In this document: piece by piece, positions 5,628-42,544 of the stretch
Layout: each line of letters starts with the position of its first letter
Position numbering within the stretch: position 1 is the first letter of the stretch
Virus record (IMG/VR): IMGVR_UViG_3300009678_000029
Location: 1-42,544 of that record
Length of the DNA stretch: 42,544 nt
Source of the DNA: a virus
Strand: one strand, 5' to 3'
The notes under the pieces: model-generated
Told to the model about the DNA's origin: nothing
The model's database searches: none
What the model saw: only the letters and a program-made list of their open reading frames with translations
Program-made: the position numbers and the translations under genes

Positions 5628-5846
5628 CTACCCGTCCTTTCGGATCAATCCGTCGAGGGCTTGGGCGACGACGATCTTTGGCCCGCCACCGTTCGCGGCG
5701 GCATCGTCGCGCTTGTTGGCGATGCGCTCGATCAGTCGCGTGGCTTCGGCGAGCGCACCGAGGATGAGCACCGTCTGATCGAGCGGTCCCTTGATCGCGA
5801 CGCGCCCCTGCTGGAGATCGTATTGGATGTGGAGCTCGAGAATCAT
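5628..5846 (-). CDS. Hypothetical protein (72 aa), first gene after late leader A
   Basis: ORF 5628..5867 (TTG); the ATG at 5846 is more plausible. It ends in GGG TAG next to the possible recoding site. Confidence 0.5.
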   Translation of the reverse strand: MILELHIQYDLQQGRVAIKGPLDQTVLILGALAEATRLIERIANKRDDAAANGGGPKIVVAQALDGLIRKDG

Positions 5847-5864: not shown

Positions 5865-5910
5865 CAAAAAGAAACGAGGGGCCAGAGCGCTGACTGCGCT
5901 CCAGCCCCTC
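5865..5910 (-). terminator. Intrinsic terminator ending the early/int operon (also the hairpin of late leader A)
   Basis: Minus strand reads GAGGGGC-TG-GAGCGC-AGTCA-GCGCTC-TG-GCCCCTC, followed by GTTTCTTTTTG. Confidence 0.7.
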
Positions 5911-5966
5911 GCCGACCAGTGTGCCGACCTAGGGCCTCGTTTACTTCATGGCGTCGAATATAGCGA
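5904..5966 (-). promoter_or_regulatory. Late leader element, copy A: TCGCTATATTC box, AGGCCCTAGGTCG box, TCGGCGAGGGGC (5' arm of the hairpin)
   Basis: All three blocks recur in the same order and similar spacing at 23264-23324. TATATT is -10-like. Confidence 0.5.
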
Positions 5967-5978
5967 CTTTGCAGCGAC

Positions 5979-6206
5979 TTAGCCGAGCAGATCTCGGAGC
6001 CGGATGTCCACGATCACCTTGCAGCGAATGCAGCGGTAACTGAACAGGACCGTCTCCAACTCGTCATGGCTGAACCCGGCCTCGCGACGCCCGAGCAGGC
6101 TCGCCAGCACCGCCACGCCGGCGAGATGCCGATGCAACGGCACATGCGTGCGACCGGGGCAGCGACAACTGCGCTTGATCACGCGCGTCTCCGCGACGGC
6201 CGTCAC
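5979..6206 (-). CDS. Small zinc-ribbon-like protein (75 aa), last gene of the ATPase-nuclease cassette
   Basis: ORF track. CxC near the N-terminus (SCRCPG) and CxxC near the C-terminus (CIRCK). Start overlaps the stop of the nuclease gene. Confidence 0.55.
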   Translation of the reverse strand: MTAVAETRVIKRSCRCPGRTHVPLHRHLAGVAVLASLLGRREAGFSHDELETVLFSYRCIRCKVIVDIRLRDLLG

Positions 6207-6595
6207 CGCACCTCCAGTTGACGGGGCGTTGATGCGGTCCCGCTAGTCTCCGCGCCATGGACGGCGTGATCATCTTCGACCTGCCCGACTGGCCCGTGCA
6301 GATCGATCCAGTCCCGCAGCGACACGACGACGAGCGCATCCTGATCCAGGCACCGCGGCCGCTGCAGGATGACGACGCCGATCTTCGCCGGCGATCGCTC
6401 GGCCGCCTTCCGGCGGATCTTGTCGAGCCACTCGAGGACGTAGCCCGGGAACTGTGAGGCGCGGCTCTTCGCCTGGTAGCAGAACATGCCGTCCTCGAAG
6501 TCGGCCCCGTCCCGCTCGCCGGTGACGGGGATCCGCCGGGTCCCGAGTAGGACCGCCACGCGCCGCTCGAACGCCTTCCAGCGTGTGTCGCTCAC
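6203..6595 (-). CDS. Small PD-(D/E)XK-type nuclease, Hjc/resolvase-like (130 aa)
   Basis: Layout WKAFERRVAVLLG ... GADFEDG ... FCYQAKS ... GVVILQRP resembles the E...D...(E/Q)xK motif of archaeal-type Holliday junction resolvases. Start overlaps the ATPase stop. Confidence 0.55.
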   Translation of the reverse strand: MSDTRWKAFERRVAVLLGTRRIPVTGERDGADFEDGMFCYQAKSRASQFPGYVLEWLDKIRRKAAERSPAKIGVVILQRPRCLDQDALVVVSLRDWIDLHGPVGQVEDDHAVHGAETSGTASTPRQLEVR

Positions 6596-8340
6596 ACCGC
6601 ACCATCGAACAGCAGCTCGCTCGCTTTGACGCCGTCGCGATCGGCTTCGACGAGGCGCTTCGCGCCGAGCCGCTGCAGATACGTGTCCCGGCTCGAGCGC
6701 GCATAGCCTGTTATTTCACTGATGACGTCGCGGGCGACGGCTTTCGGGTAGTCCGCCACGACGATGTCGAGGATCTTCCGCTCGCCTTCGGGCAGCCGCC
6801 GGCGCCAATGCTCCAGGAGTTCGGCGCCGATCGGCAGCGGCTCGAAGTCCGGACCGAGCGCGGCGAGGCCTGCCGACGTTGCGAGCGCGCTCGTGCCGGC
6901 GACCTGGACCAGGCCCTTCTCGCTCAGGCGCTGCAGATACGTGTGGTGCGTCGACCGGCGGTAGCCGGTGAGGACGGTCAGCTGCTTGCGACTGCAGCCT
7001 TCCGGGTAATGCGCCACGGCGCGCAGGACGGCGGCTTCGCCCTTGGGGAGCGCGCCGTCAAAAACCTCCCGGGCGGGAGGGATCTGCCGAGCCGGGAGGG
7101 AAACGGTCGGCCTTTTTCCGGGGACCGGTTGGCGGACTGCAGCCGTCTGCACTGGCTTCGTGGCTCGGGCAATGGCGACGTCGATGCGCTCGAGCGCGTC
7201 CGTCAGGATCCTTCTGCCCTCCGTCATACGCTCCGCCACGCCACGCGCGTCCGCAAAGACCTGCTGAATCACGACGAGCGCCTGCTTGAGTCCGGTAAGG
7301 TGTTCCTCGGTCAGCATGGGTACGGCCACACGCTCGATCTTCGTCTCGACGCGCGGCTCGATCTTGACGGTGCCCTTCTTGGCGAGCTCGCGCTGCAAGC
7401 GACCGACCTGCTCGCGCAGCAGCTTCGGGTCCTCCGCCTTCGCCTTCTCGATCGTGGCCGCCATGTCAGTCCGGATCCGCTCGAGATCGATCGGCGCGAG
7501 CTCGCGGGCGACCGCCGCGGCGCCGACCTCCGGCGTGGCGGACGCGTTGAACGATCGCTTCTCGAGGATCCCGACGACCTCGGAGATCTCCAGCCACTCG
7601 GGGCTCCACACGTGCGGCCGCCCGGTCTTCAGCTTCGGCAGCTCGGCGCCGATGTCCTGGTCGGCGATCGCCTTGTCTTTGATCCACGACTCGATCGCCT
7701 TCCGCTCGTGGCTGCCGGTGGTGCGAAACACGAACAGCGTCTGCGCCAGATTGAGCGCCTTCTTGGAGACGTCCTGCGGCCGCTGGGTGATGAGCGACGT
7801 TCCAATGCCGAAGTTGCGGCCGATCTTCTGCATCCGGATGAACGCATGCTTCATGTGCTCCTCGCCGCGCTGCTCGTTCTCGGGGACGAATTCCTGGCAC
7901 TCCTCGAGGAACAGGTGCACGGCGCTCGGCGAGGCCTTCTTGCGAAAGAAGAACCGATCGGCGAAGCCGCGGGCGAAGCGCGCCTTGTCGGTGTCCGTCT
8001 CGAACTGCGAGACGTCCAGGATGGCCGAGATCGCGCGGTCGATGATGAGATCGGCGAGCAGCGCACCGCCCGTCGGCTCGAGCGGCACGTCGCCGTGCAG
8101 CCCGCCGAAGATCGGGATCGTGATGTCGCTCGGCCGCTTGCCGTCGCCGGCGAGGCGCAGGCCATACCACACGCCGACGGGATCCAGGACGATGAACTGC
8201 GCACCGGCGTCCCACATCAGCTCGGCGAGCTTCGAGGCGCCGTACGTCTTGCCGCTGCCCGTCGTGCCGATCCACGCGAGCTTCTGCGTCACGGCCTCGA
8301 CGGGCAGCGCGAGCTCGTCGGCGAGCTTGAGTTTCTTCAC
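6592..8340 (-). CDS. FtsK/HerA-superfamily P-loop ATPase (DUF87/HerA-like motifs) with coiled-coil linker and two C-terminal winged-helix repeats
   Basis: 582 aa. Walker A GTTGSGKT, FIVLDPVG, Walker B-like HLFLEECQEF, TSLITQRPQD. Two repeats of L-P-x-G-E...TGY-x-RS...TYLQRL...LV. The GTG start overlaps the int stop (GTGA). Confidence 0.8.
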   Translation of the reverse strand: MKKLKLADELALPVEAVTQKLAWIGTTGSGKTYGASKLAELMWDAGAQFIVLDPVGVWYGLRLAGDGKRPSDITIPIFGGLHGDVPLEPTGGALLADLIIDRAISAILDVSQFETDTDKARFARGFADRFFFRKKASPSAVHLFLEECQEFVPENEQRGEEHMKHAFIRMQKIGRNFGIGTSLITQRPQDVSKKALNLAQTLFVFRTTGSHERKAIESWIKDKAIADQDIGAELPKLKTGRPHVWSPEWLEISEVVGILEKRSFNASATPEVGAAAVARELAPIDLERIRTDMAATIEKAKAEDPKLLREQVGRLQRELAKKGTVKIEPRVETKIERVAVPMLTEEHLTGLKQALVVIQQVFADARGVAERMTEGRRILTDALERIDVAIARATKPVQTAAVRQPVPGKRPTVSLPARQIPPAREVFDGALPKGEAAVLRAVAHYPEGCSRKQLTVLTGYRRSTHHTYLQRLSEKGLVQVAGTSALATSAGLAALGPDFEPLPIGAELLEHWRRRLPEGERKILDIVVADYPKAVARDVISEITGYARSSRDTYLQRLGAKRLVEADRDGVKASELLFDGAV

Positions 8341-18961: not shown

Positions 18962-19176
18962 GGCGACTCGACACCGGCAGACGCGAGGGAGTCCTGCGCC
19001 CGCAACTCAGCGAGGCGCGCGCGGATGCTGGGCATGGCGTGCTCCCGGAGGATCGTGCCCACACCGAGCTCGTTGTCCTTCCGGAGGTCCCGCTCCCGGC
19101 GGGCGAGTTCCTTCGCCACGACGGTCTCGTCGCGGTCCAATCCGACCTTGAATTCTTTCTTGACGTGTCGTGCCAT
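18958..19176 (-). CDS. First early gene: possible ribbon-helix-helix DNA-binding protein (Cro-like role)
   Basis: 72 aa. KKEFKVGLDRDETVVAKELARRE...LGVGTILREHAMPSIRARLAEL fits a beta-alpha-alpha pattern. Divergent from the repressor gene. Confidence 0.5.
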   Translation of the reverse strand: MARHVKKEFKVGLDRDETVVAKELARRERDLRKDNELGVGTILREHAMPSIRARLAELRAQDSLASAGVESP

Positions 19177-19188
19177 GCGCCGTATGCT
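19160..19188 (+). promoter_or_regulatory. Sigma70-like promoter candidate for the repressor gene (TTGACG-17 nt-TATGCT)
   Basis: Read directly. Located ~30 nt upstream of ATG 19219. The host promoter consensus is unknown. Confidence 0.4.
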
Positions 19189-19218
19189 CCCGGGTTGCGC
19201 TTGAGTCAGTGGCGGGTG

Positions 19219-19734
19219 ATGAGTTCCGCACTGTCAGGTGGGCCTTACAATGGCGTGTTGACACGCAAATGTCAAGAGAGGTTTACGAAATCCACTAAGG
19301 CAGGCCCCGACAAGCAGTTATTCGCCGACCGGCTGCGACTCCAGCTGCTCAAGCTGCGCTGGCGAGCGCCCCAGTTGGCGGAAGCCCTGAGGGAACGCGG
19401 TGTGACGATTAGCCGACAATCGGTCAACGAGTGGACGCTCGGGGCACTGCCGTCTGGTCACGCGGCGGCTGTGCTCGCCGATGTGCTTGGCGTCACGGCG
19501 GATTGGCTCTGGCGTGGCGTACCTGTAGACGAGAGAGAAAGGAATCGCGCCCTGCTTGCTGCCCAGATTGCCCGGGCCGTCGAACACGTCGTGCTTACCG
19601 GTAATACGCCGCGTCTCGAGATGCTGGCGGTCTGGCTGGTAAACCTCGCGAACGACCTGCATCGCGTTGATCCGTCCTATGACACGCTTGAGATTCGTCG
19701 TGCGGCCGACCAGGTCCGAGAACTCATCGGCTGA
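19219..19734 (+). CDS. XRE-family HTH repressor (CI-like), with no S24 peptidase domain
   Basis: ORF 19039..19734, probable start ATG 19219 (GTG 19255 also possible). HTH LFADRLRLQLLKLRWRAPQLAEALRERGVTISRQSVNEWTLG. One of only three plus-strand genes. Confidence 0.75.
   Translation: MSSALSGGPYNGVLTRKCQERFTKSTKAGPDKQLFADRLRLQLLKLRWRAPQLAEALRERGVTISRQSVNEWTLGALPSGHAAAVLADVLGVTADWLWRGVPVDERERNRALLAAQIARAVEHVVLTGNTPRLEMLAVWLVNLANDLHRVDPSYDTLEIRRAADQVRELIG
19258..19275. promoter_or_regulatory. Perfect palindrome TTGACA-CGCAAA-TGTCAA: candidate operator, giving -35-like hexamers on both strands
   Basis: Read directly in the repressor/early-operon switch region. Confidence 0.45.
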
Positions 19735-21668: not shown

Positions 21669-22094
21669 CTAACGAAGCGGGAAGGCGTCGGTGATCGTGA
21701 GCGAGAAGTCGTCCACGTCCGCGAGCCAGTCCATCATCAGCCGGAACGCCACCTGACTTGCGACTACGGCCTGCTTCAGCACATCGTGCGCGCCCGTATC
21801 TTCGTCGGTCGGCACCTTCACCATACCGCGCCGCAGCCCGACGCCCACGCAGCCGCGCACATCCTCCTCGGTGTTGGCTGGGTGAAACAGAATGCGCGAG
21901 CGGCCGGGGATGCCCGTGATCTCGAAGGCTTCGTAGCCGTGCTTGTAGTAGATCGTGCGGCGACAGAGGTAGACGCCGGCGGGGAAGATGTCTTCGTCGT
22001 CCTCCATCGTGCACAGCGCGCGATGCTCGGGGATCGTGAGGAGTCCGAACACGCCGTCCCTCGTGCGCTCGGTGCGCCGGAGCGTCACGTTCAT
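21669..22094 (-). CDS. Putative endolysin, DUF5675-like (YkuD-like His/Cys signature)
   Basis: ATG at 22094 overlaps the upstream stop. GVFGLLTI...CTMEDD...PAGVY...SRILFHPANTEEDVRGCVGVG. Lies between membrane proteins. Confidence 0.5.
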   Translation of the reverse strand: MNVTLRRTERTRDGVFGLLTIPEHRALCTMEDDEDIFPAGVYLCRRTIYYKHGYEAFEITGIPGRSRILFHPANTEEDVRGCVGVGLRRGMVKVPTDEDTGAHDVLKQAVVASQVAFRLMMDWLADVDDFSLTITDAFPLR

Positions 22095-22402
22095 TCGACC
22101 ACCGCTGGGACATTGGGATCGGAGGCGCGGCGCCCCGGCGCCTCGCCGGCCACGACCTTCGCCGTGGCCGCTCGTTCCCTGACTCCCCGCAGGCCATCCG
22201 CGACCTGACCACCCGTGAGCGGCGCGACGCACGCCGCGACCATGATGCCCACCAGCGTCTCGTTCACGTCGCGGGCCATGAACACGACCCAGACCGTCGC
22301 GATCCCGGCGAGCGTCGCAAGGCCGACGCTGACAAAGCCACGCACGCGCCCATAGTTGATCACGCCCTTTTCGTCGGCGACCAACGTGCTCCAGCGGATC
22401 AT
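22091..22402 (-). CDS. Holin-like membrane protein (103 aa, 2 TM segments)
   Basis: ATG at 22402 overlaps the upstream stop. FVSVGLATLAGIATVWVVF and LVGIMVAACVAPL. Confidence 0.55.
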   Translation of the reverse strand: MIRWSTLVADEKGVINYGRVRGFVSVGLATLAGIATVWVVFMARDVNETLVGIMVAACVAPLTGGQVADGLRGVRERAATAKVVAGEAPGRRASDPNVPAVVE

Positions 22403-22904: not shown

Positions 22905-23210
22905 TCACCGGCAGATCTTCCACAGAGCGCCGGCCGCGAGCGCGGCCCCGACGACATCCGCCACCAGGTCGCGATACGAAAACTGGTCGGTAAGCCAGGG
23001 CCACGGCTGGGGACGCCCCTTCCCGTCCCAGCGCCAGAACCGCCAAAGCTCCACGAGCTCGACCCCGACCGCGGCGATGCCGAACAGCCCGAGCAGCACG
23101 AGGAACGACGCCCGCGTGAGCGCCGCGAGCATCGTCCAGGTGACGAACGCCCAGACGATGTGCTCGAGCTTGTCCAGTGCCAGGAAGCGGTCATCGGCGA
23201 ACAGCTTCAT
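22905..23210 (-). CDS. Membrane protein (101 aa), first gene after late leader B
   Basis: GGGAGG lies 4 nt before ATG 23210. TM segments IVWAFVTWTMLAAL, FLVLLGLFGIAAVGV and VVGAALAAGALW. Confidence 0.6.
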   Translation of the reverse strand: MKLFADDRFLALDKLEHIVWAFVTWTMLAALTRASFLVLLGLFGIAAVGVELVELWRFWRWDGKGRPQPWPWLTDQFSYRDLVADVVGAALAAGALWKICR

Positions 23211-23228
23211 CGGCCTCCCAGGAATGCG

Positions 23229-23267
23229 AAAAGGGCCCCCGCCCAGGAGTTACCTGAGCAGGGGCCC
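23229..23267 (-). terminator. Hairpin plus short U-tract of late leader B
   Basis: Minus strand: GGGCCCC...CAGG-TAACT-CCTG...GGGGCCC followed by TTTTCG. Same architecture as 5865-5910. Confidence 0.5.
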
Positions 23268-23324
23268 CTCGCCGATCGTCCGACTCGACCTAGAGCCTTC
23301 GATGCTAGGCTAAGAATATAGCGA
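23264..23324 (-). promoter_or_regulatory. Late leader element, copy B: TCGCTATATTC box, AGGCTCTAGGTCG box, TCGGCGAGGGGC
   Basis: Same three blocks as 5904-5966, in the same order, with spacing within 3 nt. Confidence 0.5.
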
Positions 23325-23393: not shown

Positions 23394-23708
23394 ATGCGCA
23401 CGATCACAGTCTTCCTGGTCACGCTTCTTCTCCTGGCCGCCCCTCTCTCAGCGCAGCAGCCGCCTCGCTGGGAATACGGCCGTCTGGCACTCAGTGGTGG
23501 TGTGCCGGTTGGCTGGAGTGCTGGCGACAGTTCAGGCAATGCCCGCGCGCTCATTCAATCCGTCGAGGATCGCGAGCGGAGTGGGACGAAGCGGAACACC
23601 GACATTGTCGTCGGAGTGTTGAACGAACTCAGTGAGCAGGGATGGGAGTTGGTTCAAGCAGATGTACAGTTTGTTGGATTCATCTTCCGACGTCCGAGGC
23701 AGCAATGA
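23394..23708 (+). CDS. Secreted DUF4177-like protein (104 aa)
   Basis: Signal peptide MRTITVFLVTLLLLAAPLSAQ; WEYGRL...VLNELSEQGWELV pattern; plus strand; no obvious SD. Confidence 0.6.
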   Translation: MRTITVFLVTLLLLAAPLSAQQPPRWEYGRLALSGGVPVGWSAGDSSGNARALIQSVEDRERSGTKRNTDIVVGVLNELSEQGWELVQADVQFVGFIFRRPRQQ

Positions 23709-24214
23709 ATCGCTCTCTACTCATCATCGCCCTGGCACTGATCACCGCCTGCGGCGATCCGACAGCCGGTGCCAAGCCGCGGGGTGATCCGTTCACGGTC
23801 ATCGTGACGCATGCCCACTTCACGGACACGCTTGTGCAGCAGTACAACTTCTTTGCGATGGTCTTCGATCATGGAGCAACCTCTCCATTCGAAGTCACGT
23901 GGGGGGGCATCGACTCAACCCAATCCGCGAACGGGTTCACCACGTGCTTTAGCATGGGCGCTGACAGCTTAGGCTCACGCCTTGCGTATTTCGAACTCCG
24001 CTCTGCCTTTCCCTCCGCTGTCGGCGACACGCTCCAGAGTGACACGCTGGACATTGCCGCGATCCCCAGCGCGGATTCTGCCAACGGCTACGGACAGACG
24101 TACAACAAACCCTACTATTGGCACTGGTACATCGCCAACGATTCGAACGTGGTCCGCGGCGATACCACCCGCTTCCAGATTACGCCGGACCCCGCCACGA
24201 TTTGCCGCTTCTAA
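23705..24214 (+). CDS. Lipoprotein (169 aa), moron cargo
   Basis: ATG 23705 overlaps the upstream TGA (ATGA). MNRSLLIIALALITAC with lipobox ITAC. Confidence 0.65.
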   Translation: MNRSLLIIALALITACGDPTAGAKPRGDPFTVIVTHAHFTDTLVQQYNFFAMVFDHGATSPFEVTWGGIDSTQSANGFTTCFSMGADSLGSRLAYFELRSAFPSAVGDTLQSDTLDIAAIPSADSANGYGQTYNKPYYWHWYIANDSNVVRGDTTRFQITPDPATICRF

Positions 24215-37026: not shown

Positions 37027-38283
37027 TTACAGCCCCGTCACGGTCGCGAACGCTGCCGGCCGGTAGACGCAGAAGGCCACGCGCACATCGGCACGCAGCG
37101 TCTTCTGGCCGATGATGAACTGCGAGGCGATCCACCCGACCTGCACCTCGATCTGCTTGCGCTCCAGCAGCTGGCAGTAGTTCGCGTAGTCGCCCACGAG
37201 CGCCGTGCCCACGGTGAGTGACTCGCACAGCACGACGGGAAGACCCCACATCCGCATGTCGCCGGCGTCGAGGGGAGACCCGAACTGGAAGTCGCCCGCC
37301 GCGTTCGTGAGGAGGCGCGTGGTCTCCCAGTTGGTCGGGTGCATGAAGATCGCGTTCGGCGCCGCCCGCCCCGTCACGCGGACCTTGGTGAGCGCCTTCA
37401 GGACGCCGGCCGGGATGGAGTCGGCGCCCTTCGCCTGCGTCTGGATGCCGGCGGTCGAGACGATACCCGTCAGCGTCACGCCGGCGCCCGTGCCCGCGAT
37501 GACCTGCTGGTCCACGCGCGCCGACAGGCCGAAGCGCAGCCGGTTGTCCACCAGCGCGCGGGACTGCGGCACATCGTCCAGCTGCTCGTCGGTGATCGGA
37601 ATCTGCGAGCCGATCTTGCGCACCGGGCTCGTCCGCTCGGTGAACACGAACACGTCTTCGGCGTAGGTGCCGGATTCCGCGACCTCCGCCTCCGACTGCG
37701 TGCGAGTCGTTTCCTCCATCCACCGAATCTCGAACTGATCGGTCTGATCGACGGGGATGAAGTCCAGGATCTGCGGCGGGCGGATGGCGAAATCCACGAC
37801 GCGCCCCGTGCGAGCGGCGCGCGGTGCCCAGCCCGCCGTGGTGGACATCACCGCCTTGACACCCATCTCCACGGTCGCCAAGGCCTGCCCCGGCATCTTG
37901 GACTTGCCCGCCAACTCCAGGTACGACTTGCTCTCCACGACGAGCTCGCCGAAGCTCTTGGGCTCATCGGAAAGCGGCGCACCGGGGATGTTCGGCCGAA
38001 TCGGCCGCTTCATCCGCTCGTCCTGACTCGCGACGGCGTCCTTGATCGACTTCAGCGTCAGCGAGTCGAGCTGGGCGCCGATCTCCTGAATCTCCACCCC
38101 GAGCGCCATGACCTTCGACTTGGCGTCCGCCATGTCGCTGGCCCCGAGCTTCTCGAGGACGGCCGCGCGCGAGTAGTCCTCGGAGCCGTCGTCCGCTTTC
38201 GCGGCTTCGTTGGCCTCGTGGAACCGCTTGGTCTTGGTGGCGAGGAGTTCGCGGGTTTCGGCGAGCAGGTTGGACTCGGGCAT
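37027..38283 (-). CDS. Major capsid protein, HK97 fold, with an N-terminal delta/scaffold-like region
   Basis: 418 aa. Coiled N-terminal ~110 aa, then a typical HK97-family body. Follows the prohead protease; GGAGG lies before the ATG. Confidence 0.9.
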   Translation of the reverse strand: MPESNLLAETRELLATKTKRFHEANEAAKADDGSEDYSRAAVLEKLGASDMADAKSKVMALGVEIQEIGAQLDSLTLKSIKDAVASQDERMKRPIRPNIPGAPLSDEPKSFGELVVESKSYLELAGKSKMPGQALATVEMGVKAVMSTTAGWAPRAARTGRVVDFAIRPPQILDFIPVDQTDQFEIRWMEETTRTQSEAEVAESGTYAEDVFVFTERTSPVRKIGSQIPITDEQLDDVPQSRALVDNRLRFGLSARVDQQVIAGTGAGVTLTGIVSTAGIQTQAKGADSIPAGVLKALTKVRVTGRAAPNAIFMHPTNWETTRLLTNAAGDFQFGSPLDAGDMRMWGLPVVLCESLTVGTALVGDYANYCQLLERKQIEVQVGWIASQFIIGQKTLRADVRVAFCVYRPAAFATVTGL

Positions 38284-40477: not shown

Positions 40478-40707
40478 GCCTCAGCCGGCTCCTTCTCCTG
40501 CACGGCCTCGGCGATCGCCGCCCGGTAATCCGCCAGCCACTGCTCATCCGAGCGCGGCTCTTTGCTCTGATAAACCTCCAGCGCCGCCTGCTGCGCGGCC
40601 ACGAGCCGCTTGCCGCTGTAGGGCGCGAGCAGCTTCTCGAGTGCCGCGGCACGGTCGGGGTTCAGCTTGATCGGCTTCGTTTCCATCGGCAGCTTGCTCA
40701 TCGTCAT
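40474..40707 (-). CDS. Hypothetical protein (77 aa) between terL and portal
   Basis: The internal ATG 40707 of ORF 40474..40986 overlaps the terL stop. Confidence 0.55.
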   Translation of the reverse strand: MTMSKLPMETKPIKLNPDRAAALEKLLAPYSGKRLVAAQQAALEVYQSKEPRSDEQWLADYRAAIAEAVQEKEPAEA

Positions 40708-42272
40708 GCTCCTGAGAGATCGAACGCGCTGAAGTCCCAGGCGCCCGAGGTTTGCCGCACCGCCGTGTCGTAGGCGATGATCGCCGCAATGGCGCAGTCG
40801 ATGTGCCGCGGAGAATCCGGCGACTCCTTCGTCGGCACGAGCCCCCAGCGCGTGCCCTTCGCTACGCAGTGGCCGACGTGCGCCGCCAACACCGTGTCCC
40901 CGTCGTGCGTCAGCCGCTGGTCCTTGATCGCCCCGTAGAGCTGCGCGGCCGCCGGCGCGATCCGCGACTGCGACCGCGTCGGCCACTCAACGACCTCGAT
41001 GCCCTTCTGCTGCAGCGCCTCCAGGTCCATCGCCCAGATGCGCCCGAACGTGTCGTCCGCCGCGAGGATCCGGACGGCGTACTTCCCGATCGCGTCCTCC
41101 ATCGCGCCGAGGACCTCTTCGCGCGGCACCGTCCATTCCTTCACCCCGTCCGGCCGTTCCCACGCGCCCAGCGTGATGAGCCGAGGCACTGCTTCCTCGG
41201 TGCAGCCCATCAGCGACGTCGAGTCGCGGTTGTACGAGCCGTCGAAGCCGAGCACCATCGACGTCCCCGGCGCCACCTCGCCAACACGTTTCGCGGCCTC
41301 CCACATCTCGACCGGGATCCACTGCGTCGGCGCCGCGGACCATTGGTTCAAGTGATACCGACGGAACTCGTGTTCGGGGATCTGCTGATAGCGCGCGACG
41401 ATCCCCTCGAGCGACAGGAAGTCCCCGACCGCTGGATTCGCCTGGCGGATCGCCGCCTCGAGCTGCGTAGGATCGTTCAGGTCCCACTTCTCGTCGGCCT
41501 CGTTCCAGATAAACAGGAACTTGTCGTCCCGCCCCTGGCCAGCCTGCACGCGCTTCCCGTGCAGGTACATCTTGCCGAGCAGTGTGGACTGATCCCAGCC
41601 GGCCGTCGTGATCGCTAGCTCCCAGGCGTCGCGTCGCTTCGCGCGGCCGTTCGACAGCACCAGGTGCACACGCTCCTTCGTGCCCACCCACTCGTGGAGC
41701 TCGTCGGAGACGAAGCACGTCGGCCGCTTCCCGTCGTTCGCGCCGGCGACGGCCGCCACCCGGTACAGCGTCCCCGGCCGGCCCTTGAGCAGGATCTCCG
41801 TATCGAAGACCTCGCAGAGCTCGTTCAGCGTGCCCTCGCGCACCATCGTGCGCGCCGCGCCGAACACGAGATCGGCCTGGTCGAACGACGCCGCCGCGAC
41901 CGGGATGTCGGGCGACGTCCGGGCGGCGCCGATCGGCGTGCCGTCCTGGCGCCAGCCGGCGAAGCACACCGGCCCCGCAAACTCGGCGCAGGCGATCGCC
42001 GCGGCGACCTCGGTCTTCCCCTGGCCCTTGGGTAGCCCCCAGAGCAGGCGATCATAACGCCGGCTCCCGTCCGCGTTGAGCTCGTAGGCTTCGTAGATCA
42101 CGCGCTTCTGCCAGGGCCGCAGCCGGAACGGCTTGCCGTAGTAGTCGCCCTCCGCGTGGACGAGGTTCGCCTCCATCCACCGACAGATCTGCCGCCCGAG
42201 ACTCGGCGGCAGCACCGTCTTCCCGCGGCGCTTAGGCGCGCGGGTCGTCGTCGTCGCTGTCATCGAGGTCAT
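40704..42272 (-). CDS. terL: Terminase large subunit
   Basis: 522 aa. Walker A-like GLPKGQGKT, Walker B FVSDELHEW, C-terminal nuclease region. Preceded by terS. Confidence 0.92.
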   Translation of the reverse strand: MTSMTATTTTRAPKRRGKTVLPPSLGRQICRWMEANLVHAEGDYYGKPFRLRPWQKRVIYEAYELNADGSRRYDRLLWGLPKGQGKTEVAAAIACAEFAGPVCFAGWRQDGTPIGAARTSPDIPVAAASFDQADLVFGAARTMVREGTLNELCEVFDTEILLKGRPGTLYRVAAVAGANDGKRPTCFVSDELHEWVGTKERVHLVLSNGRAKRRDAWELAITTAGWDQSTLLGKMYLHGKRVQAGQGRDDKFLFIWNEADEKWDLNDPTQLEAAIRQANPAVGDFLSLEGIVARYQQIPEHEFRRYHLNQWSAAPTQWIPVEMWEAAKRVGEVAPGTSMVLGFDGSYNRDSTSLMGCTEEAVPRLITLGAWERPDGVKEWTVPREEVLGAMEDAIGKYAVRILAADDTFGRIWAMDLEALQQKGIEVVEWPTRSQSRIAPAAAQLYGAIKDQRLTHDGDTVLAAHVGHCVAKGTRWGLVPTKESPDSPRHIDCAIAAIIAYDTAVRQTSGAWDFSAFDLSGA

Positions 42273-42544
42273 GGTTCAGATCTTCCAGGGACTTCTGCTT
42301 GCCCACCGGGATCCCCATCCGTTGCCGTGACCAGGGGCTGATGCCGAACCGGTCCTCGAGGCGGCGGATCTCTGACTCGAACGCGCGCGCCTGTTTCAGG
42401 ATCGGGTTGATCACCGGCTGCCCCTTCGAGCCCTTCACATACGGGCACTTCCGGTAGGCGCGGTAGGACCGATCGCGCTCGTCGTACAGTCGGAACAGGT
42501 GGCGCAATGTCGGCATGTCCACCGTCTCGATGAACCACGCCATC
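42232..42544 (-). CDS. terS: Terminase small subunit (P27-like), C-terminal part; the N-terminus lies at 124-284 across the circular junction
   Basis: ...GQPVINPILKQARAFESEIRRLEDRFGISPWSRQRMG... is typical of P27-family small terminases. The ORF is open at the window edge. Confidence 0.8.
   Translation of the reverse strand, partial: MAWFIETVDMPTLRHLFRLYDERDRSYRAYRKCPYVKGSKGQPVINPILKQARAFESEIRRLEDRFGISPWSRQRMGIPVGKQKSLEDLNHDLDDSDDDDPRA
42422..42544. repeat. Terminal direct repeat, copy 2 (identical to 1-123)
   Basis: Direct comparison of both window ends. Confidence 0.95.

Follow-up and report, generated by a model that had tools for sequence, protein, structure and literature searches.

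Two copies of a leader of about 100 nucleotides (nt), here called A and B, occupy true intergenic gaps directly 5′ of the two late-type transcription units of a phage genome, and on balance we favor reading each as a factor-dependent attenuator that gates the late unit behind it, with both late units gated. The genome is IMG/VR virus record IMGVR_UViG_3300009678_000029, of which the whole stretch from position 1 to 42,544 was analyzed (the window; 42.5 kb, 66.6% GC, nearly all genes on the minus strand). In each copy a hairpin, P1, shares nucleotides with the base of a stabler intrinsic terminator, T, and the same architecture, in other sequences, recurs in related phages. Such a leader suggests that phage late genes can be turned on in a manner not described before.

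All leader coordinates are on the minus strand. In copy A, block 1 (TCGCTATATTC, 5966-5956) holds the −10-like hexamer TATATT (5962-5957); block 2 (AGGCCCTAGGTCG, 5937-5925) follows after 18 nt, and block 3 (TCGGCGAGGGGC, 5915-5904) after a further 9 nt. The core of the hairpin that follows (5910-5876) had been described as a 7+6 bp stem; the same stem is there, in the form of 15 continuous base pairs with two central G·U pairs, and in a hairpin scan it extends to 18 pairs (5913-5873). Next come the U-rich tail GTTTCTTTTTG (5875-5865), GGAG, and an ATG at 5846. In copy B, block 1 is again TCGCTATATTC (23324-23314; TATATT at 23320-23315), block 2 is AGGCTCTAGGTCG (23298-23286), with a single C/T difference from copy A, block 3 is again TCGGCGAGGGGC (23275-23264), and the 3′ part consists of a 16-20 bp hairpin, UUUUCGCAUUCC, GGGAGG, and an ATG at 23210. 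The blocks, GC-rich hairpins, and U-tracts thus lie where the preliminary description of this sequence had placed them, and its claim that the layout recurs in copy B stands apart from the spacers, which are 15 and 10 nt there rather than the 18 and 9 nt of copy A. The U-tract of copy B is also weaker and shorter (UUUU at 23232-23229). A search of both strands of the 42.5 kb places exact TCGCTATATTC, AGGCYCTAGGTCG, and TCGGCGAGGGGC at 5966-5904 and 23324-23264 and nowhere else; chance cannot produce three collinear blocks of 11, 13, and 12 nt that match exactly or nearly so. The only two occurrences of TATATT in the window are those in block 1, and TATAAT is missing altogether; a −35 element, sought 16-18 nt upstream of TATATT, is absent from both copies. 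The full leaders fold better than shuffled sequences in both copies (z, −3.5 to −5.1), and the leader is identical in all five contigs of the window phage, which are strain variants.

Several smaller features surround the blocks. The heptamer AGTCGCT, reported earlier as a direct repeat in copy A, does occur twice upstream of the TATATT (5979-5973 and 5968-5962, 11 nt apart); copy B has a tandem ATTCG pair directly 5′ of block 1 (direct-repeat region 23333-23321), and GG(C/T)TAA(G/T)TCG stands further upstream in both copies at differing distances from block 1. A mini-ORF, AUG-AAG-UAA, lies just 5′ of P1 in leader A (5947-5939); a leader peptide was rejected since copy B has no such mini-ORF, and a conserved RNA hairpin around block 1 was rejected since it forms in copy A alone. 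Block 2 contains TAGGTC, 25 nt (copy A) or 22 nt (copy B) past TATATT, which recalls the TAGGTT of relatives (below); we judged it less likely to be the true −10, as it is part of P1, lacks an associated −35, and has C where a −10 would end in T.

Blocks 2 and 3 had been taken, with block 1, for three independent boxes. They are instead the two strands of an RNA helix. In copy A, P1 (5903-5936) has block 2 as its 5′ strand and block 3 as its 3′ strand, with outer and inner stems of 6 bp each, separated by a 2×2 internal loop (AG/GA), and a terminal loop of 6 nt; P1 of copy B (23263-23297) has the same architecture, and the loops of the two copies differ in sequence and length. With both copies folded up to the terminator loop, the outer stem pairs GGCYCU with GGGGCY and the inner stem has 5-7 bp, giving the window-type pattern GGCYCUAGGUCG ... 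UCGGCGAGGGGC. Predicted energies, as all folding energies here are, come to −20.5 kcal/mol for copy A (z, −3.35; 0/200 shuffles as good) and −17.7 kcal/mol for copy B (z, −2.09). RNAalifold applied to the two copies together returns 12 pairs, every one of them kept in both: the C-to-U change in block 2 turns C-G into U·G, the pair beside the loop changes from C-G to U-A, and the U/C difference at the base after block 3 likewise keeps its pair. Sense P1 relies on four G·U pairs, and the antisense strand folds at only −6.5 (A) and −6.2 (B) kcal/mol; this restriction to the sense strand speaks for an RNA element rather than a palindrome in the DNA.

The 3′ strand of P1 (GAGGGGC) doubles as the 5′ base of T, with 6-9 nt in common, and the two structures are therefore mutually exclusive. 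T spans 5865-5913 in copy A (stem 5913-5873, U-rich tail 5875-5865) and 23226-23272 in copy B, with stems of −37 to −45 kcal/mol. The T state is predicted at −41.5 against −32.4 kcal/mol for the P1 state in copy A, and at −47.6 against −36.4 kcal/mol in copy B. With T stabler by 9 and 11 kcal/mol, respectively, termination is expected to be the default, and read-through to need P1 held closed; in the P1 state the upper terminator stem alone persists, separated from the U-tract by 7-9 unpaired nt. The leaders combine two hallmarks of the attenuator class, an intrinsic terminator in a 5′ leader directly before genes and a competing helix in which part of the terminator's 5′ arm is tied up, the latter in the window and in relatives alike.

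The setting of the two copies fits a gate on late expression. From U-tract to start codon there are about 20 nt in each copy, taken up by a ribosome-binding site; a promoter would not fit 3′ of the terminator, and both units can therefore be expressed only by transcription through it. The unit after leader A, about 24 kb long, begins with a 72-amino-acid (aa) ORF (5628-5846, −) and contains accessory genes and then HNH (272-718), terS (from 42232), terL (40704-42272), portal, capsid (37027-38283), and tail genes, an order that bears out the one first described. It runs across the ends of the window, which is a complete circular assembly of about 42.4 kb: a junction-spanning contig of this phage indicates that the same 123 nt stand at both ends (1-123 and 42422-42544), contigs from other samples show the end overlap, and terS crosses the junction. 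Because the genome is circular, the unit behind leader A extends to the tail genes. The unit after copy B (from 23210) is rich in transmembrane proteins; its first ORF encodes a 101-aa membrane-spanning, holin-like protein (22905-23210, −) and it includes a DUF5675 protein gene (21669-22232), so that a lysis cassette is plausible. Two oppositely oriented genes, for a secreted protein and a lipoprotein (23394-24214, +), lie between the tail genes and leader B and cut copy B off from the former, and the lysis-like unit therefore needs a transcriptional entry of its own. Antitermination, as proposed in the preliminary description, is partly supported, in that a terminator directly precedes both late-type units and the layout recurs in relatives; its anatomy is not the one proposed.

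In the mechanism we favor, transcription would enter the leader from the −10-like TATATT of block 1, to which, with no −35, an activator or upstream read-through may contribute. The RNA would first fold P1 by pairing block 2 with block 3, and would then extend into the long GC hairpin and U-tract for which the 3′ strand of P1 is also the 5′ base. Unaided, the stabler terminator would displace P1 and end transcription some 20 nt short of the first late gene. Recognition of the conserved P1 strands would fall to a phage-specific factor, made earlier, that either holds P1 closed or loads onto RNA polymerase there; with the terminator base blocked, polymerase would enter the packaging and virion genes (A) and the lysis-like genes (B) simultaneously. 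That P1 strands are kept exactly between the two copies of one genome, while the loops vary freely, suggests a sequence-specific factor acting in trans. We infer the transcription start, the operation of the switch in vivo, a protein as its trigger, and the choice of that protein.

Relatives were reached through the 582-aa protein of the early region (6592-8340, −), which joins a HerA/DUF87-type ATPase domain to two C-terminal winged-helix domains. It has more than 1,186 homologs, nearly all from soil and groundwater metagenomes, with distant ones in genome bins of Acidobacteriota, Gemmatimonadota, Verrucomicrobiota, and other phyla, and it marks a very large, wholly uncultivated group of soil phages in which, to our knowledge, nothing is known of regulation. 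A scan for strong terminators 3′ of its gene at 79 metagenome loci and 9 genome loci matched only L010 (86% identity to the window in this protein) and L007, most relatives being too diverged or arranged differently. Both have an intergenic leader made up of promoter, hairpin, terminator, and ribosome-binding site at the same genome position, with sequences that differ from those of the window. Other routes gave less: the DUF5675 protein, as anchor for copy B, yielded no relative and terL one distant locus only; exact-pattern scans of IMG/VR for the window blocks returned chance matches only; and a loose P1 pattern gave more than 120 chance matches, none confirmed by the covariance model. Conservation of the blocks in relatives, a prediction of the preliminary description, is not seen; what is conserved is the architecture alone.

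In L010 and L007 the gene directly upstream of the leader encodes a protein of 63-66 aa. It belongs to a family of small proteins (53-121 aa) unnamed before, with the motif L..ELEQiLdggFTGeI.L.C..G.V..y.V.E.rKPG, a predicted fold of one helix plus a beta-hairpin, and an Arg-rich tail; when 1.84 billion representative proteins were searched with a profile, the family came to 46 clusters. Five more members (L102-L106) led to leaders of one common plan. On the promoter side, a −35 TAGACT overlaps the stop codon and is followed by a nonconserved 17-nt spacer and a −10 TAGGTT or TAGATT; on the RNA side come about 9 nt, GGAGU-CAA-CCG-loop-CGG-C-ACUCC, a terminator 5′ arm that starts with that same ACUCC, a U-tract, and a ribosome-binding site. 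All five further clusters looked up (L235-L239) also have an intergenic P1/terminator leader directly 3′ of the small gene, with promoter-like hexamers in four and a poor U-tract in L238.

A covariance model built from the relatives' leaders found one further leader in the 43-kb phage L002, whose 582-aa protein is 61% identical to that of the window, and an exact-pattern scan of the same genome then revealed a second copy. Between the two L002 copies the P1 strands (11/11 and 11/11) and the terminator base (10/10) are identical, and the P1 loop and the upper terminator stem differ, the same pattern of conserved strands and free loops as between window copies A and B. Copy 1 precedes head genes, including one for a cement protein, and keeps P1 and terminator without a recognizable promoter; copy 2 follows TTGGCG-17-TAGATT and precedes genes for a membrane (holin-like) protein and an NlpC/P60 protein (lysin).

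Covariation speaks for both folds. We aligned 13 related leaders, which have other sequences than the window and the layout in common. In P1, 97% of alignment cells are paired and 5/8 pairs show compensatory change, a covariation value reached by 0/500 shuffles (slid controls, 18-59%), and in the terminator base helix 6/8 pairs show compensatory change. Alignment columns 27-31 belong to both helices, and over these columns the partners change together: GGAGU/ACUCC/GGRGU in some leaders, GAGGU/ACCUC/GAGGU or GGGGU/AUCCC/GGGAU in others. Joint change of this kind marks two folds that compete with each other and are each maintained by selection.

Which factor would operate the switch is suggested by gene position. 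A gene of the small family lies directly upstream of the leader in 12/12 lineages examined (loci include L010 7045-7245, L007 286-476, L102-L106, L235-L239, and L002 19119-19481), and none of the loci examined has a family member without a P1/terminator leader. The L002 protein, a tandem two-domain version (hhalign probability, 96.8%), precedes copy 1. The window has no member of this family; the slot directly upstream of leader A holds an orphan gene for an unrelated 75-aa CxxC...CxxC protein (5979-6206, −), and P1 has a different sequence. Among 5.8 billion proteins the 75-aa protein has no homolog but itself; it has no Pfam match at E ≤ 0.01, Zn_ribbon_CSL falling below threshold at E 0.011, and its AF2 model, a helix plus a beta-hairpin, is of low confidence and too poor for use. 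By position only, it is the best candidate for the type-specific factor, and the window would then carry a swapped cassette, a different small gene together with a different P1. Taken further, and here we are tentative, the leaders could define a new class of late switch: a leader of about 100 nt, set before virion and lysis operons alike, with a genome-specific antiterminator hairpin that competes with an intrinsic terminator. It would be opened by a new kind of RNA-binding antiterminator protein of about 55-120 aa that is encoded immediately upstream, and uncultivated soil phages would exchange protein and hairpin jointly as a specificity cassette, with the window's 75-aa CxxC protein and GGCYCU...GGGGCY hairpin forming a second, unrelated cassette.

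Several points weigh against a factor-dependent attenuator. The window type is represented by two copies in one genome, so its pairing rests on two sequences, of which copy B has a modest z score. If the TAGGTC in block 2 were a real −10, P1 would not be transcribed whole, and that the copies agree exactly in their P1 strands is likewise compatible with a protein that binds DNA. The link between window and relatives is architectural only: the window type cannot be aligned to theirs by sequence, and their covariance model misses the window leaders; both have this architecture, place the leader behind the replication/recombination module, carry it in duplicate before virion and lysis units, and have a small gene in the slot. 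No RNA-binding domain was recognized in any window protein, the 75-aa protein being an orphan with a poor structural model, and a Foldseek search of the PDB with the model of the relatives' small protein found no match. Finally, a passive attenuator leaves unexplained how polymerase passes a strong hairpin inside the late unit, directly 5′ of the major capsid gene (38348-38320), which would favor a processive factor over a block on the leader terminator alone. This hairpin had been described as a further part of the antitermination scheme and was considered here as a third leader copy; with no common block and no competing helix, it was rejected as such. It forms part of a third promoter-like and terminator arrangement (38382-38311, −) consisting of TTGCGG-17-TAGATT, 28 nt, a 12-bp GC hairpin, and UUUUCGUUU.

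A processive factor of the Q type would account for passage of that hairpin. Block 1 would then be a late promoter, and a DNA-binding protein would load onto polymerase paused at TAGGTC and make it resistant to the leader terminator and later ones. A preprint on BrrG, the Q21-like protein of the Bartonella gene transfer agent, lists four canonical components of a Q circuit (bioRxiv 10.1101/2024.11.20.624540), and the leaders match three of these in layout, with a −10 of promoter-like sequence, a further −10-like element about 19-24 nt past the inferred start, and a terminator ahead of the late genes. In position, Q has its counterpart in the small gene immediately upstream, and Q-like proteins can escape recognition by sequence. 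The wider resemblance to the lambdoid Q/PR′-qut-tR′ systems, BrrG included, lies in a terminator between a promoter-like site and late genes, a proposed outcome of coordinated late expression, a regulator-sized gene directly upstream at the end of the replication/recombination module, and a −10-like hexamer 3′ of the putative promoter. Unlike those systems, the leaders have no identifiable Q-binding element, the conserved blocks farther downstream pair as RNA, in a helix overlapping the terminator, and one leader serves twice, before virion and lysis units, where lambda has a single PR′. Among 47 window proteins scanned against Pfam, the products of all early-region ORFs included, none matched an antiterminator family, and PDB sequence searches with the two proteins upstream of leader A were empty. 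The pairing of blocks 2 and 3 needs G·U pairs and is confined to the sense strand; TAGGTC lacks the final T; and the relatives have no conserved −10-like element at the equivalent place in the transcribed region but show RNA covariation there. The analogy to lambda PR′-tR′ and Q drawn in the preliminary description is further undercut by the missing −35 in both copies and by L002 copy 1, where P1 and terminator persist without a recognizable promoter, and we consider a Q-type switch unlikely.

The nut and put sites of lambda and HK022 do not overlap a terminator; nut combines boxA with boxB, a 15-nt hairpin, and works with an N protein that has an arginine-rich motif, and put, which acts on RNA polymerase without a phage protein, consists of two stem-loops. 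Were the leaders of the N/nut type, P1 would serve in the manner of boxB as the hairpin from which a small basic protein loads and moves along with polymerase, and its overlap with the terminator would be secondary. Like nutL and nutR, or putL and putR, the leaders supply two conserved RNA elements per genome just 3′ of promoter-like sites, each with a conserved stem and a variable loop, that would act on the terminators downstream; the Arg-rich tail of the relatives' small protein and the internal hairpin of the late unit would suit such a factor. P1 differs in overlapping the terminator. Every leader type preserves this overlap, and the columns common to both helices covary, which suggests that the competition itself is under selection. 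The hairpin is present but is not boxB-like, no N-like protein was found among the scanned window proteins, and no boxA was recognized beyond the CGCT of block 1. The HK022 put analogy, also raised earlier, fails on anatomy: in place of two adjacent free stem-loops of about 65-70 nt there is a single bipartite hairpin of 34-35 nt (34 nt in copy A) that overlaps the terminator. We accord N/nut-type loading a low probability.

It is still less probable, in our judgment, that no switch exists and that the leaders are constitutive leaky terminators, insulators, or RNA-stabilizing 5′ structures set behind a promoter, with the blocks serving as promoter or operator DNA and their complementarity functionless. 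Phage operons often contain partial terminators, only two copies represent the window type, and by our own estimate the chance is about 0.05 for such complementarity between two 11-mers in GC-rich sequence. Yet the pattern of conserved strands and free loops recurs in an independent genome, L002, P1 covaries together with the terminator in 13 leaders, and terminator stems as strong as those described make constitutive read-through of a 24-kb operon unlikely. That both loci are genes for trans-acting short regulatory RNAs (promoter, about 75 nt, terminator) is very improbable, for although the layout is like that of a small RNA gene and both copies weakly match the Rfam small RNA family BjrC68 (19 and 18.5 bits, below the threshold of 39), the match is limited to the terminator stem and in the window and in all 13 relatives alike a ribosome-binding site and start codon follow the element at a distance of about 20 nt.

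For a factor-dependent attenuator, the closest bacterial counterparts are the protein-dependent terminator/antiterminator systems of BglG, SacY, and LicT with their RAT elements and of the ANTAR regulators. As in those systems, some nucleotides of a 5′ leader belong both to a short antiterminator hairpin and to the 5′ arm of a stabler intrinsic terminator, and a conserved stem sequence suggests a sequence-specific RNA binder. The differences are that the hairpin sequence is unrelated, that the leaders stand before phage late operons, and that a genome-specific hairpin type is paired with a small unrelated gene; Pfam scans of the window proteins found no CAT/PRD or ANTAR domain. Among mobile elements, the conjugation operon of pLS20-family plasmids is preceded by a zipper-type attenuator, cATTpLS20, with a 456-nt leader, a long zipper stem, and a separate two-component processive system after it (PMC13401043). 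Both elements place competing antiterminator and terminator folds before a very long operon of a mobile element and are conserved as architecture; the one described here is only about 100 nt long, is duplicated within a genome, and is found in soil phages. The literature we searched contains no description of a terminator/antiterminator leader for phage late genes, which is not proof of absence.

The timing of late genes is understood in few model phages: lambdoid phages rely on Q, P2 and Mu on activators, and T4 and SPO1 on sigma factors. If our reading is correct, a compact RNA switch would couple virion assembly and lysis to one signal, and the leaders would come with a new family of tiny regulators and matching RNA targets, possible orthogonal parts for synthetic biology. 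The signature of promoter, P1, terminator, and ribosome-binding site would also locate the starts of late operons in metagenomic phages without annotatable genes.

Elsewhere in the window, the recognizable genes suggest a temperate, siphovirus-like map. An early leftward unit holds genes for a YqaJ exonuclease, an exonuclease, a ParB-like protein, an integrase, and the 582-aa HerA/DUF87 and winged-helix protein, and the virion part holds the portal and tail genes along with those placed above. The INPHARED phage collection contains no close relative of the window phage, and an Rfam scan of the whole window gave nothing at the gathering threshold. Between the 582-aa and 75-aa genes lies one for a 130-aa protein (6203-6595, −; 54% identity in L010), which has no family match and no PDB match; by eye it shows a GERDGADF...Q-A-K pattern reminiscent of a PD-(D/E)XK nuclease or a resolvase. 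A gene for a helix-turn-helix repressor-like protein (19039-19734, +) adjoins a palindrome, TTGACAtttgcgTGTCAA (19275-19246, −), that contains a consensus −35, TTGACA; the site is probably an early promoter with its operator, which suggests that the host RNA polymerase reads canonical sigma-70 signals.

A few observations concern neighboring or related loci. The secreted protein (MRTITVFLVTLLLLAAPLSAQ...) and lipoprotein (MNRSLLIIALALITAC...) encoded at 23394-24214 (+) lie in a stretch of 57-60% GC, lower than its surroundings, and the pair looks like an acquired accessory (moron) cassette inserted between tail and lysis genes. After the leader, L007 continues directly with HNH, terS, and terL; in L010 (7405-10568), L102 (1515-5681), and L104 (721-5641) the first genes encode TPR/glycosyltransferase-like proteins and S-adenosylmethionine (SAM) methyltransferases, not packaging functions. 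In L002, upstream of the gene for the 582-aa protein homolog, two copies of CCCGGGAAAAGTCCCGGG flank a fragment resembling the 3′ half of a tRNA (7940-8140), which may be an attachment-site region.

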